Origin: Eledone cirrhosa
Taxonomy: Eukaryota
Direction: 5' to 3'
Assembly: GCA_964016885.1 (NCBI GenBank)
Contig: OZ024740.1
Location: 333,560,001-333,624,000 of the forward strand
DNA length: 64,000 nucleotides
Part shown: piece after piece, positions 50,681 to 62,660 of the stretch
Layout: each line of letters starts with the position of its first letter
Position numbering within the stretch: position 1 is the stretch's first letter
Notes under the pieces: model-generated
Told to the model about the DNA's origin: nothing
Database searches by the model: none
What the model saw: only the letters and a program-made list of their open reading frames with translations
Position numbers and translations under genes: made by a program

Positions 50681-52553
50681 ATGAAAAAGTGAGTCCTTCA
50701 TCAGTGACTCTCCAACCGTCCTCGGCATTTCATCGCTTTAAGGGCCATATGCCTCAGGTTGGTGCGAACAACGGCTAAAAAAAGTCGTTGGGACACGTAA
50801 ATAAAGGGGGACGCTAGAGTAACAACAAAAGGGTTTAAGCAACGGAAAGTGAGTAGAAATAGACAAGTCCCAGATCTCTATGAATATAAACTCTGTGAAA
50901 TCGTGAACAAGAGACGAAAGACCATCGAACCTGGTAGAAATGTGAGCAAGGAAAGAATTTCGCCCAAGTTTGACGGGGGGGGGGAAAGAGAGAGAGAGAG
51001 AGAGAAAGAAAAAGGAGAGAAGAGGAAGAAGAAGAAGAAGAAGAAGAAGAAGAAGAAGAAGAAGAAGAAGAAGAAGAAGATAAGGTGGTCTGGTCTACGA
51101 ATTCGGTAAACGCAAGTTTTGTGAAGTCGCAGACGAAAGAGAGAGAGAAAAAAATGTTTCATACCAGCTCGGTCAAGACTGCGCGAGAAAAGAATTACAC
51201 ACAGGTCAAACTTGAAGGAGGAGGAGGAAATAGGAGGAGGAGAGGTAGTGAAAGAGAATGAGTGAGTGAAAGTTGAGGAGAGAGTAACAGAGAGGGAGAC
51301 TGCTAGAAGTGGTAAAGATACAAGGAACGAAACAGACAGGCAGCATGGAAAAGTAATATGTGTAAATATGATGATAATAATGGAGCTGCGGCGTTGCAAA
51401 TGGGATACATATGAAAAAGTGAGTCCTTCATCAGTGACCCTCCAACCGTCCTCGGCATTTCATCGCTTTAAGGGCCATATGCCTCAGGTTGGTGCGAACA
51501 ACGGCTAAAAAAAGTCGTTGGGACACGTAAATAAAGGGGGACGCTAGAGTAACAACAAAAGGGTTTAAGCAACGGAAAGTGAGTAGAAATAGACAAGTCC
51601 CAGATCTCTATGAATATAAACTCTGTGAAATCGTGAACAAGAGACGAAAGACCATCGAACCTGGTAGAAATGTGAGCAAGGAAAGAATTTCGCCCAAGTT
51701 TGACGGGGGGGGGGGGAAGAGAGAGAGAGAGAGAGAAAGAAAAAGGAGAGAAGAGGAAGAAGAAGAAGAAGAAGAAGAAGAAGAAGAAGAAGAAGAAGAA
51801 GAAGAAGAAGAAGAAGAAGAAGAAGAAGATAAGGTGGTCTGGTCTACGAATTCGGTAAACGCAAGTTTTGTGAAGTCGCAGACGAAAGAGAGAGAGAAAA
51901 AAATTTTTCATACCAGCTCGGTCAAGACTGCGCGAGAAAAGAATTACACACAGGTCAAACTTGAAGGAGGAGGAGGAAAGAGGAGGAGGAGAGGTAGTGA
52001 CAGAGAATGAGTGAGTGAAAGTTGATGAGAGGGTAACAGAGAGGGAGACTGCTAGAAGTGGTAAAGATACAAGGAACGAAACAGACAGGCAGCATGGAAA
52101 AGTAATATGTGTAAATATGATGATAATAATGGAGCTGCGGCGTTGCAAATGGGATACATATGAAAAAGTGAGTCCTTCATCAGTGACCCTCCAACCGTCC
52201 TCGGCATTTCATCGCTTTAAGGGCCATATGCCTCAGGTTGGTGCGAACAACGGCTAAAAAAAGTCGTTGGGACACGTAAATAAAGGGGGACGCTAGAGTA
52301 ACAACAAAAGGGTTTAAGCAACGGAAAGTGAGTAGAAATAGACAAGTCCCAGATCTCTATGAATATAAACTCTGTGAAATCGTGAACAAGAGACGAAAGA
52401 CCATCGAACCTGGTAGAAATGTGAGCAAGGAAAGAATTTCGCCCAAGTTTGACGGGGGGGAAAAAAGAGAGAGAGAGAGAGAGAAAGAAAAAGGAGAGAA
52501 GAAGAAGAAGAAGAAGAAGAAGAAGAAGAAGAAGAAGAAGAAGAAGAAGATAA
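50681..52553 (-). repeat. Tandem array of ~2.5 non-coding units (730 and 749 bp), retrozyme-like
   Basis: Units start at 50681, 51411 and 52160. They are nearly identical except for G-run, (GA)n and (GAA)n lengths, and each carries the 102-nt structured motif. Confidence 0.92.
51423..51524 (-). ncRNA. Candidate permuted/pseudoknotted hammerhead ribozyme (other copies at 50693-50794 and 52172-52273)
   Basis: GTCC CAACGACT TTTTTT AGCCGTTG T TCGC A CCAACC TGA GGCAT A^ TGGCCCT TAAA GCGA T GAA ATGCC GAG GAC GGTTGG AGGGTCA CTGATGA A GGAC. Confidence 0.7.
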
Positions 52554-53248
52554 AGTGAAGTTGGGCGTTGTTTGTTTGGTGTCCCGAACTTGCAGGCTAC
52601 ACGATTCATCCGATTTTCATGAAACTTCACACATATATAAAACTCGATCCTTAGATTGGCCACGTGAAATTTTCGAAAAATCGATAATCAGGCCCCCACA
52701 AGCCAAAAAACGATACTTTTAAAAATCGTCCGATTTCGATGAAATTCGACGCAAATGTGTATTTTCATCGGACCCCCAGAGGCAAACATCAATCTTTTTT
52801 AGAATTCCTCCGATTTCAATGAAATTTGATATTGCCACAATAATAGATCCACTAGGAGTTATTCCAAGGCAGCAAAAATTCAGAAAGTTTCTTTAAACTC
52901 ATAAATCATGCGTTAAATGAGAGCGTTAAGAGTTAGGGCAGACAATTATTCATAGTTTAATTATCAATCGACTTTTTCACCCTGCTTTAAAAATCAACTG
53001 AAAATTCAATTTCAAGTGAATTTGACTTCCGTCAGTCGTGCAAAGAACAATTTCAACGATACACTCTATACCTACTATTGATCCATTATTTATGCTCAAT
53101 CACACACCTGCGTCTACTAACCTCTGTTTTTTTTTCCTTGAGGTTCGAAGGTTTTTGCAACTGTGATGCGCGGGAAGTAACTTTCACACATTTTAATAAC
53201 AGAGCAAAGGTCGACTTACACCCGGGCAACGCCTGGTACTTCTGCTAG
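52550..53248 (+). mobile_element. Non-autonomous Helitron
   Basis: 3' hairpin ACCCGGGCAACGCCTGGT followed shortly by terminal CTAG|T (53245-53248). Internal repeats CCGATTT..ATGAAA.TT. The 5' TC end is not visible. Confidence 0.75.
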
Positions 53249-53866
53249 TATATATTATTATTATTATTACTATATATATATATATATATATATGTGTGTG
53301 TGTGTGTGTGTGTGTGTGTGTGTGTGTGTGTGTGTGTGTGTGTGTGTGTGTGTGTGTGTGTGTGTGTGTGTGTGTGGCGTGTGCGTGTATCTATGTGTGA
53401 ATGTGTGAGGATGTGTACCTACATATTTATTACTAAGACCTACTACCTTAATGTAAACGACAATGCTACTATATTAATTCAACTACGAACTGAAGCAAGC
53501 ACAAATTATACACTTACATTTGAAGTCATTCAACAAACTCTGGCACCAGGGAAGATTTAAGCAATATCCATTTCAACACACCGTAAAAGAAACGCAATAC
53601 ATATAACAGATTGCATCAATCTTCAATCTCATATAATAATAATGTAAACTACAGCACCCATTAAAATTTCTATTAAGCAAAATTCTCTATCATACCAATC
53701 TAGGGAGTCACTCAGTCAGCTGTTACATACATGACATAGACATATAGATATTTACATATGAATGAAAGTACAGACACACACACTCACAGACACACACACA
53801 CACTCACTTATATATATATATATATATATATATATATATATATATATATATATATATATATATATA

Positions 53867-60975: not shown

Positions 60976-61249
60976 GACTATCAGTTGTCATAGCCTGAGC
61001 TCTTGAGGTTGCAAAATCGATAAAAACTTAAAGTTTCAAACATAACCTTTACATTTGGAAGATCCCAATAATTTATCCGAGATATATTTTTTTCCATTGA
61101 TACAGTGTCCGACTGTCTCCCTGTATCAATAAAAGAAAATTTTTGATGGAGAAATAATTTGATTCCTTCAAATTTGAAGGTTACGAACTTTCAATGTTTT
61201 TATAGGTTTTTGCCGTCTAAAGAGCTCAATCTATCATAACTGATAGTCC
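60976..61249. repeat. Long imperfect hairpin
   Basis: GGACTATCAGTT..TGAGCTCTT..ATAAAAAC..TAACCTT..ATTGATACAG pairs with CTGTATCAAT..AAGGTTA..GTTTTTAT..AAGAGCTCA..AACTGATAGTCC. Confidence 0.75.
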
Positions 61250-61400
61250 TCAGTGAAATATGTATAACTGTGTTTTAAAGAAACCTTAATCAACTGAATA
61301 TGGCCTCCGGTCTTGTATTAATACTATATATATATATATATATATATATATATATATATATATATATATATATATATATATATATATATATATATATATA

Positions 61401-62660
61401 TGTTGTTTACTTGTCCCCCTCGCCTTACGCGAATTCTGGTCCCATTAACTATTTTTAGTTATTGCTCGCACCAACCTTAGGTATCTGATTTTTAATGCGA
61501 TGAAATACCAATGATGGTTGGAAAATCACCGACAAAGGACTATTTTTATCATATGTAACCCATGTGCAAACCACGCAGTATTCTTCTTTCTTCTCAGGTT
61601 TTTATATATATTTACCTCGGCTGCGTTTGTCTGTTTCTCTCTTACTGCTTCCCCGCTCTCTTTGTTTCTCTAACCTTCTTTCGCCCCCTCTGTGAGTTAC
61701 AATTTCTCTCGACTGACCTCTTCCACACACTTCCACTCACTCACTCCCTATTTCTCCCCTTCTCACTTCCTCCCGTTTGGCTTGTGTGGGTCTCTTCTTG
61801 CTCACATCTCACACACTTCAACACGGTCTGTACTTCTCTCGCTCATGAAATCCACCCAGCTTATGATGACCGGACAACCATGTTGCTTGTTTATTTTCCT
61901 ATCTTCGGTTTGCTTTTATCCTTCTATGTTGCTTACTTTCCCCCCTCGCATTACGCGAATTCTGGTCCCAATAACTTTTTCTAGTTATTGCTCGCACCAG
62001 CCTGAGATATCTGATTTTTAATGCGATGAAATACCAATGATGGTTGGAAAATCACCGACGAAGGACTATTTTTATCATATGTAACCCATGTGCAAACCAC
62101 GCAGTATTCTTCTTTCTTCTCATGTTTTTTATATATATTTACCTCGGCTGCGTTTGTCTGTTTCTCTCTTACTGCTTCCCCGTTCTCTCTGTTTCTCTCA
62201 CCTTCTTTCGCCCCTCTGTGAGTTACACTTTCTCTCGACTGACCTCTTCCACACACTTCCACTCATTCACTCCCTGTTTCTCCCCTTCTCACTTCCTCCC
62301 GTTTGGCTTGTGTGGGTCTCTTCTTGCTCACATCTCACACACATTAACACGGTCTGTACTTCTCTCGCTCATGAAATCCACCCAGCTTATACTGACCGGA
62401 CAAACATGTTGCTTGTTTATTTTCCTATCTTCGGTTTTCTTTTATCCTTCTATGTTGTTTACTTTTCCCCCTCGCCTTACGCGAATTCTGGTCCCAATAA
62501 CTTTTTTTAGTTATTGCTCGCACCAGCCTGAAACATCTGATTTTTAATGCGATGAAATACCAATGATGGTTGGAAAATCACCGACGAAGGACTATTTTTA
62601 TCATATGTAACCCATGTGCAAACCGCGCAGTATTCTTCTTTCTTCTCATGTTTTTTATAT
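61401..62660 (+). repeat. Tandem array of ~2.4 non-coding 526-bp units, retrozyme-like
   Basis: Motif copies at 61439, 61965 and 62491 (period 526). Pyrimidine-rich body with (TA)n on both sides. Confidence 0.92.
61965..62066 (+). ncRNA. Candidate permuted/pseudoknotted hammerhead ribozyme (other copies at 61439-61540 and 62491-62592)
   Basis: GTCC CAATAACT TTTTCT AGTTATTG C TCGC A CCAGCC TGA GATAT C^ TGATTTT TAAT GCGA T GAA ATACC AAT GAT GGTTGG AAAATCA CCGACGA A GGAC. Confidence 0.65.

Follow-up and report, generated by a model that had tools for sequence, protein, structure and literature searches.

Tandem repeats with a predicted split-block, permuted hammerhead motif in dispersed, (TA)n-flanked families of Eledone cirrhosa

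We analyzed two tandem arrays in a 64,000-nucleotide stretch of the Eledone cirrhosa genome (assembly GCA_964016885.1, contig OZ024740.1, positions 333,560,001–333,624,000 of the forward strand; hereafter the window, in whose coordinates all positions are given), which a first-pass annotation had described as retrozymes copied from circular RNA and targeted to (TA)n. Our analysis indicates that the arrays are non-coding repeats of dispersed, (TA)n-flanked families, probably descended from the ends of Naiads, which are Penelope-like elements (PLEs), and that each unit carries, once, a predicted hammerhead ribozyme whose conserved blocks follow the order S–G–C.

Both arrays consist of head-to-tail units, and re-measurement reproduced their annotated units and coordinates. 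Array A comprises ~2.5 units of 730/749 bp with 97% identity between units, and array B comprises ~2.4 units of 526 bp with 95% identity between units; the two arrays lie in opposite orientations and share ~75% identity over ~170 bp. The pyrimidine-rich strand is the minus strand in array A and the plus strand in array B, and its 3′ end enters (TA)n at an internal CATATG in array A and at TTATATAT in array B, just as first described. The region between the arrays (52554–61401), which falls inside the annotated span, consists of other elements.

50681–52553, minus strand: array A, with a 5′-truncated unit at 52553–52160 followed by units at 52159–51411 (749 bp) and 51410–50681 (730 bp)
50666–50682: 3′-terminal (TA)n tract of array A, the proximal priming site, ~16 nt past CUGAUGA
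61325–61401: 5′-flanking (TA)n tract of array B
61402–62656, plus strand: array B, with units at 61402–61927 and 61928–62453 followed by a partial unit that extends to the distal TA priming site
62656–62671: 3′-terminal (TA)n tract of array B, common, tail to tail, to the 3′ end of a minus-strand Neptune element

A permuted hammerhead motif in both arrays

The two arrays share a motif whose annotated length of 102 nt was confirmed (52273–52172). As annotated, there is one candidate ribozyme per unit in that the motif occurs in all six units, yet only two of the array A copies are intact.

52172–52273, minus strand: intact motif copy, predicted cut after 52227 (AUA), GAAA at 52210 and CUGAUGA at 52183
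51423–51524, minus strand: intact motif copy, predicted cut after 51478
50693–50794, minus strand: motif copy with one stem I mismatch, predicted cut after 50748
61439–61540, plus strand: motif copy with core changes U4C and G8A, likely dead, predicted cut after 61485 (AUC)
61965–62066, plus strand: motif copy with U4C and a weakened stem III, predicted cut after 62011
62491–62592, plus strand: motif copy with U4C and a broken stem III, predicted cut after 62537

Array B begins upstream of its first cut, as had been noticed, starting 84 nt before the one predicted after 61485.

Within the motif, block S (stem III, NUH, stem I) is followed by block G (GAAA, stem III) and then by block C (stem I, CUGANGA). 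Block C is interrupted: the stem II strand that pairs with block G sits upstream of block S, from where it continues into a joining helix, and the bases that follow CUGANGA pair not with the stem II strand but with a 5′ clamp strand, forming a helix that we call P0. A clamp and a hairpin thus effectively separate the core from stem II, placed after a single unpaired base, and PLE hammerheads, too, often have a single unpaired base after the core (PMC4209133; here and below, statements about cited work refer to the accessible portions of each source). The linker that connects stem I to stem II is 4 nt long, and the helix that links the other sides of these two stems has 6 bp, three of them with changes on both sides. 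From this arrangement of blocks and helices, the motif is very probably a non-circularly permuted, type-SGC hammerhead fold with a split block C, and we would expect, with somewhat less assurance, that it cleaves in vitro.

The type I hammerhead of the earlier description did not hold, given the S–G–C block order and the lack of any ribozyme match to Rfam in the window, either at the gathering threshold or at E≤10. A generic scan of the window for all six hammerhead block orders found the motif in two of the six units, with no match of comparable strength when the window was reversed or complemented. Plain folding of the 102-nt motif gave a stability no greater than that of shuffled sequences, using a nested model that is unable to display stems I and II jointly with the remaining helices. 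HDV-like (hepatitis delta virus-like), twister, twister-sister, pistol and type I–III hammerhead folds were compared by eye against their consensus features and were dropped, the required pairings being absent. With respect to strand, the G-U wobbles and the hammerhead blocks lead us to infer that the RNA strand of array A is the minus strand; the purine-rich strand was rejected as the RNA, for it contains none of the core blocks, and wobble pairs (G-U) within stem I and the joining helix favor the opposite strand.

Dispersed copies, covariation and insertion ends

Genome-wide searches were run on the 3.0-Gb assembly that contains the window. At first look, DNA similarity yielded 3703 candidates for family B and 2382 for family A (with 40 of each scored), showing that the families are dispersed rather than confined to a single locus. 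A pattern built from blocks G and C (34 places) matched 10,028 times in the genome and one built from blocks S and G matched 10,972 times, with 0 matches in the reversed control of either. When the S block was omitted from a looser pattern, 379 matches resulted, as compared with 9 in the control; among the first 30 of these, 7 had NUH together with stems I and III of at least 4 bp (0.1 expected), and the remaining 23 were truncated, mutated or chance. Unit lengths across families ran from ~430 to ~830 bp. The units also proved non-coding, as annotated: in 85 distinct units, read as dimers, the longest open reading frame (ORF) starting with ATG had a median length of 93 aa and reached at most 195 aa.

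The copies retain both the core and the pairing around it. Among 54 distinct A/B copies fetched by DNA similarity, 42 keep every core feature and 46 have CUGANGA preceded by stem I. Seven helices make up the structure, namely the clamp P0 (4–6 bp), the hairpin, stem II, the joining helix, stem III, stem I and a single pair after the core, and across 17 hand-picked subfamily representatives 94.9% of the 594 cells were paired. Changes on both sides occurred in 12 of the 35 pairs and were spread over six of the seven helices; stem III was 96.5% paired with 1 such change, and stem I was 98.3% paired with 3. Slid controls reached 27–49%, and none of 500 shuffles matched the paired percentage, although the rows are related and hand-picked and the shuffle counts are therefore not probabilities. 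Far-diverged families among the matches to the looser pattern, which we designate M and which have a mean column identity of 55% with A/B, are likewise pyrimidine-rich and TA-ended, several occurring in tandem or inverted copies, and they also carry a GUC triplet, stems I and III, an upstream stem II, P0, the hairpin and the joining helix. Cleavage triplets in the examined families were limited to AUA, AUC, GUC and GUA. Outside the genome, the family pattern had 0 matches in viral contigs and 1 in metagenome contigs, which lacked the S block and was taken as chance; three contig runs hold matches to the motif family, and such runs are uninformative on expression.

Several points, in addition to the relatedness of the rows, weigh against reading the motif as a hammerhead supported by covariation. 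Most covariation rows came from patterns that fix parts of blocks G and C, five rows present in the larger alignment did not enter the covariation set (two carry deletions and three are window B copies), and the invariance of GAAA and CUGANGA in the alignment that takes in the diverged families is by construction of the search pattern. All three copies of array B in the window carry a mutated core. The first stem II pair (10.1–11.1) is non-standard in families A and B, being either a pyrimidine–U mismatch in the upstream register or an A–U pair that uses the base after A9, and it is unpaired in 3 of 16 rows (13 of 16 paired); in the M families it is G10.1–C11.1, formed from the upstream strand.

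Insertion ends are fixed on the 3′ side and ragged on the 5′ side. Surveying the best 30 loci per family, with duplicate loci of one array and edge-cut loci excluded, we found the 3′ end in (TA)n in 21 of 21 distinct B arrays and in 17 of 17 distinct A arrays with a visible end, and at a single fixed site in 20 of the 21 and 16 of the 17, respectively. In 258 deduplicated copies, (TA)4 started 14–17 nt after the core in 59, 54–81 nt after it in 127 (a distal group that includes internal B units, whose internal site is TA-rich), elsewhere in 14 and nowhere in 58. There are thus two priming zones, 40–50 nt apart, which match the optional tail of PLEs, a feature that has been traced to two internal start sites of the reverse transcriptase (RT) (PMC11167929). 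The 102 5′ ends comprise 48 next to TA, 21 next to an inverted arm from their own family, with both arms entering the count, and 33 with other flanks.

A genome-wide survey of copy number, ends and flanks, which the first-pass annotation had called for, accordingly returned dispersed copies with 3′ ends fixed in TA and ragged 5′ ends, and its proposal of (TA)n targeting stands. The 3′ ends fixed in TA, 5′ truncation, inverted arms, partial tandems and optional tail together form a PLE-type insertion footprint like that described for Naiads (PMC8557442), and we regard PLE-type insertion as very likely. At three places, family A dimers (loci L045, L051 and L052) have an identical 5′ flank, and these copies were probably carried within a larger duplication or element.

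Template, ancestry and enzyme

In the mechanism that we propose, an array would be transcribed on its pyrimidine-rich strand and the motif would then fold, taking stem II from the strand upstream of the cut and clamping it beside CUGANGA by means of P0 (4–6 bp) and the hairpin, and a further helix would connect stem I with stem II at their ends. Some sites would be cut to yield linear monomers and multimers, part of which may be ligated into circles. A PLE endonuclease/RT acting in trans would nick (TA)n and prime cDNA at internal TA-like sites, which lie 14–17 or about 55–70 nt past the core; two such internal priming sites would leave the 3′ end fixed and the 5′ end to be set by the point where copying halts, in many cases the cut itself or a position slightly inside it. 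Inverted arms would arise from second-strand priming, and some arrays would later enlarge by duplications of 2 or 4 units.

How large a part circles play in this cycle bears directly on the earlier description. That circles are the main template is a tentative idea to which we give somewhat less than even weight, and the more specific scenario, in which two cuts and ligation produce monomeric circles as the main template and rolling-circle reverse transcription of these yields the non-integer arrays, strikes us as doubtful. Consistent with it, units diverge less within arrays than between them (2.43% versus 3.58% in 23 arrays of family B; 0.80% versus 1.67% at 18 loci of family A), some arrays have private variants present in every unit (27 in one 9-unit array and 5 in array B of the window), arrays read through intact cut sites, and animal retrozymes do make circles (PMC7229834). 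However, local homogenization would also give shared variants, and the higher-order periods of 4 and 2 units in arrays of 15, 7 and 9 units (L236, L234 and L233) need either a multimer template or DNA duplication. The predicted circular folds were also weak (about −0.16 kcal/mol per nt, z-scores of −2.3 and −1.1).

The 5′ ends argue in the same direction. After 60 5′ ends had been flagged near the motif and internal indels and duplicates had been removed by hand, 24–25 fell in the 20 nt around the predicted cut (−5 to +14), compared with 11 in the 45 nt upstream (p ~5 × 10^−6 for 24 of 35, with windows picked after seeing the data). Because a circle has no end at the cut, this pile-up suggests that linear, cut RNA is copied as well. 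Counting against that conclusion, TA microhomology or RT stalling at the fold could also produce part of the pile-up.

The likely source of the motif lies among the Naiads, which, according to Craig et al. (2021; PMC8557442), favor (TA)n and have no canonical hammerheads, the label 'HHR_core' or 'HHR_half_core' being given to some of them. In the consensus file of that paper, we recognized by eye the full layout of clamp, hairpin, upstream stem II and joining helix at the ends of Naiad_Obim, Ovul, EuTe and Amil/Aacu/Anas, and the same layout with an imperfect stem II at the Esco end, with the result that Naiad ends with a split block C span octopus, squid, coral and clam shrimp. Four nematode Naiads (three from Nbra and one from Hcon, assigned by file order) have, by eye, a clean type-CSG layout, which is that of the CSG alignment from soil DNA (Eckert et al., 2023, PMC10085705). 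On these resemblances of layout, we consider a Naiad ancestry of the motif likely.

Some observations speak against this ancestry. Of the eight Naiad ends that were read completely, four (Omin, Adux, Skow-1 and Ppla) showed no such motif, and the match is one of layout, made by eye on part of the 54 consensus sequences. In the Eledone genome, moreover, no Naiad ORF was found joined to the motif. The autonomous PLE carrying the motif that the first-pass annotation had suggested looking for therefore has a counterpart, by eye, in the published Naiads of other species, but none was found in this genome.

What remains of Naiads here appears old. Searches of the genome with five degenerate Naiad RT patterns gave 0, 0, 0, 3 and 10 matches, and the Naiad-like RT remnants are stop-ridden and mostly 70–83% alike where aligned. 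Six of the loci (L343, L344 and L346–L349) are old, stop-rich remnants of this kind. From the ends of the decayed remnants no motif was recovered, and the genome had 0 matches to a short motif taken from the octopus Naiad end as published. Three remnants without an ORF (L215, L231 and L232) have a Naiad-like ribozyme end.

As for the enzyme that moves the families, the window itself contains two truncated PLE copies that encode an RT and a GIY-YIG endonuclease, which we designate Neptune on the basis of the C-terminal GIY-YIG and the cysteine linker (PMC8557442).

55073–56419, minus strand: 5′-truncated Neptune-type PLE ORF (RT and GIY-YIG), whose 3′ end enters (TA)n at 53866
58210–59412, plus strand: second truncated copy of the same Neptune ORF, with its 3′ end in (TA)n at ~60641

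This window Neptune, which lies outside the arrays themselves, is a candidate for the enzyme family. Elsewhere in the genome it has intact two-ORF copies (455 and 784 aa) in a 4734-bp tandem unit with a (TA)n end, and, like the units, it has two TA-like 3′ sites, ~40 nt apart. Neptune-type PLEs of this genome also resemble the units in having (TA)n 3′ ends, inverted 5′ arms and young copies. Two Neptune families are abundant, at ~30,000–36,000 candidates apiece, and in one of them many 784-aa ORFs are intact. The C-rich family (~30,000 candidates) has a canonical minimal type I hammerhead, on the minus strand of L157 ~2850 nt from the start of the copy, and the sense strand of the window Neptune family has no CUGANGA. 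Although PLEs of this kind have been described as universally carrying hammerheads, one very young Neptune (L153:1362–8447) has both ORFs (455 aa and 784 aa) and a sense strand free of CUGANGA.

The youngest family A arrays are only 0.1–0.5% from their own majority sequence. Because only decayed Naiad RTs were found, Neptune is the likeliest mover of such young copies, and we lean slightly toward the inference that an active, TA-targeting Neptune is at present their donor, acting in trans. Two direct head-to-head joins with Neptune-type PLEs (L020 and L073) are consistent with this, but two in 102 ends is not clearly above chance. Telling against Neptune, no sequence is common to the units and the window Neptune. 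PLE ORFs that adjoin motif copies are neighbors or opposite-strand joins, with no same-strand parent among them. The earlier inference of PLE machinery thus stands for the footprint, which is PLE-type, and does not extend to a tie with the window Neptune, which has neither CUGANGA nor similarity to the units.

Alternatively, a young autonomous Naiad, either missing from the assembly or with unusual motifs, might move these families. Non-autonomous elements usually rely on the enzyme of their own parent. The layout of the motif is Naiad-like, and Naiads share the preference for (TA)n (PMC8557442). Yet the few matches to the RT patterns, of which the Naiad-like ones are decayed, and the abundance of the two Neptune families, with the intact ORFs of one of them, make a hidden Naiad unlikely.

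A further alternative to our explanation accepts the descent from a hammerhead and denies the cutting: the motif in A and B would be an RNA structure conserved for a role in priming or in the binding of protein. The non-standard 10.1–11.1 pair and the survival of multi-unit arrays through copying are compatible with this alternative, as are published findings that lone PLE hammerheads cleave poorly (PMC4209133) and that cleavage is dispensable for insertion in vitro (PMC11167929). Nonetheless, both window families have retained CUGANGA, GAAA and NUH while their stems covary, the triplet is restricted to the four forms given above, and 5′ ends gather near the cut, and on these grounds we think a non-cutting structure improbable. 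That the arrays are ordinary satellite-like DNA duplications at a single locus with the motif present by chance, as the DNA-level higher-order periods of some long arrays might suggest, is hardly credible in view of the covariation, the independent diverged families and the thousands of copies scattered through the genome that share a single 3′ end in TA, the last of which refutes a single-locus origin.

Other elements were noticed alongside the arrays. An inverted pair of hammerheads of canonical-order type I (45895–45958 on the minus strand and 46069–46131 on the plus strand) lies in an AT-rich, TA-ended element, relatives of which occur at L153, L156, L168 and L179 and in the 5′ flank of L011 and L015. 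The element abutting the 5′ end of array A (52554–53250) has short internal repeats and a CTAG end before TA, and resembles what we take to be a non-autonomous Helitron-type element. An inverted-arm element with CCUGAUGA (50226–50530 and ~26790–26990) is possibly another ribozyme-bearing, TA-targeted family. Upstream of a B array on the minus strand of L005 is another GIY-YIG element, with a hammerhead-like end whose CCGANGA core has the same U4C change as the B copies of the window. Finally, another PLE family, distinguished by its RT motif, has left remnants at 11244–12182 (plus strand) and 16052–17427 (minus strand), and a Pfam scan of three pieces of this family gave no match.

Relation to known systems

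A broader reading joins these conclusions: permuted hammerheads would be normal in many Naiads, and here protein-less descendants would have outlived their parent, switched to Neptune enzymes and expanded to >10,000 active-type copies. As a joint claim, we place it just short of an even chance. If it is true, split-C SGC hammerheads belong to Naiads of cephalopods, corals and a crustacean and CSG hammerheads to those of nematodes, which would explain the CSG ribozymes of soil metagenomes and account for Naiads apparently thriving without canonical hammerheads. A new four-way junction would lie between the catalytic core and stem II, and a CUGANGA block separable from stem II would be a natural topology beyond the six proposed. 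Non-circularly permuted hammerheads would then be a common component of animal genomes that Rfam and the type I–III descriptors have missed. The thousands of natural variants offer material for asking whether cutting, circles or linear RNA drive the spread of retrozymes.

Compared with the published type-SGC hammerheads (Eckert et al., 2023, PMC10085705), the motif has the same core order S–G–C, a similarly short linker that connects stem I to stem II (4 nt here, typically 3 there), and, as there, a helix uniting these two stems on their other sides, along with a short link from that helix to stem III. The two differ in origin and in the position of stem II. The published SGC examples came from metatranscriptomes and the CSG examples from soil metagenomes, with none from the genome of a known organism in the accessible text save one bacterial GCS candidate, whereas >10,000 copies occur here in an animal genome. 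Eckert et al. also assume that CUGAnGA is contiguous with the stem II strand and cannot be split from it (PMC10085705), whereas here that strand lies 5′ of the cut.

The units resemble the non-LTR (non-long terminal repeat) retrozymes of animals in being dispersed, non-coding tandems with one hammerhead per unit, a GC content <50% and a link to PLE ends (PMC7229834). Animal retrozymes, in contrast, have hammerheads of type I, the type whose descriptors were used to find them (PMC7229834; 10.64898/2026.07.22.740005), and circular RNA has been shown for them (PMC7229834), whereas here circles are a tentative proposal. At ~430–830 bp the units exceed the typical 150–450 bp of animal retrozymes, yet they fall within the 51–972 bp given by Li, Clavereau and Pollet 2026 (10.64898/2026.07.22.740005). 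With Naiads the units share the (TA)n preference, tandem and inverted insertions and the optional tail, and they differ in encoding nothing where Naiads encode an endonuclease and RT (PMC8557442).

In the literature found, with subscription titles mostly outside the search, no paper assigns hammerheads of type SGC or CSG to Naiads or to any eukaryotic genome, and the accessible part of PMC13725137 merely cites other permutations and extra-helix variants. Relative to that literature, what is new here is a predicted hammerhead that is non-circularly permuted, has a split block, occurs in >10,000 copies in the genome and seems to derive from Naiads.

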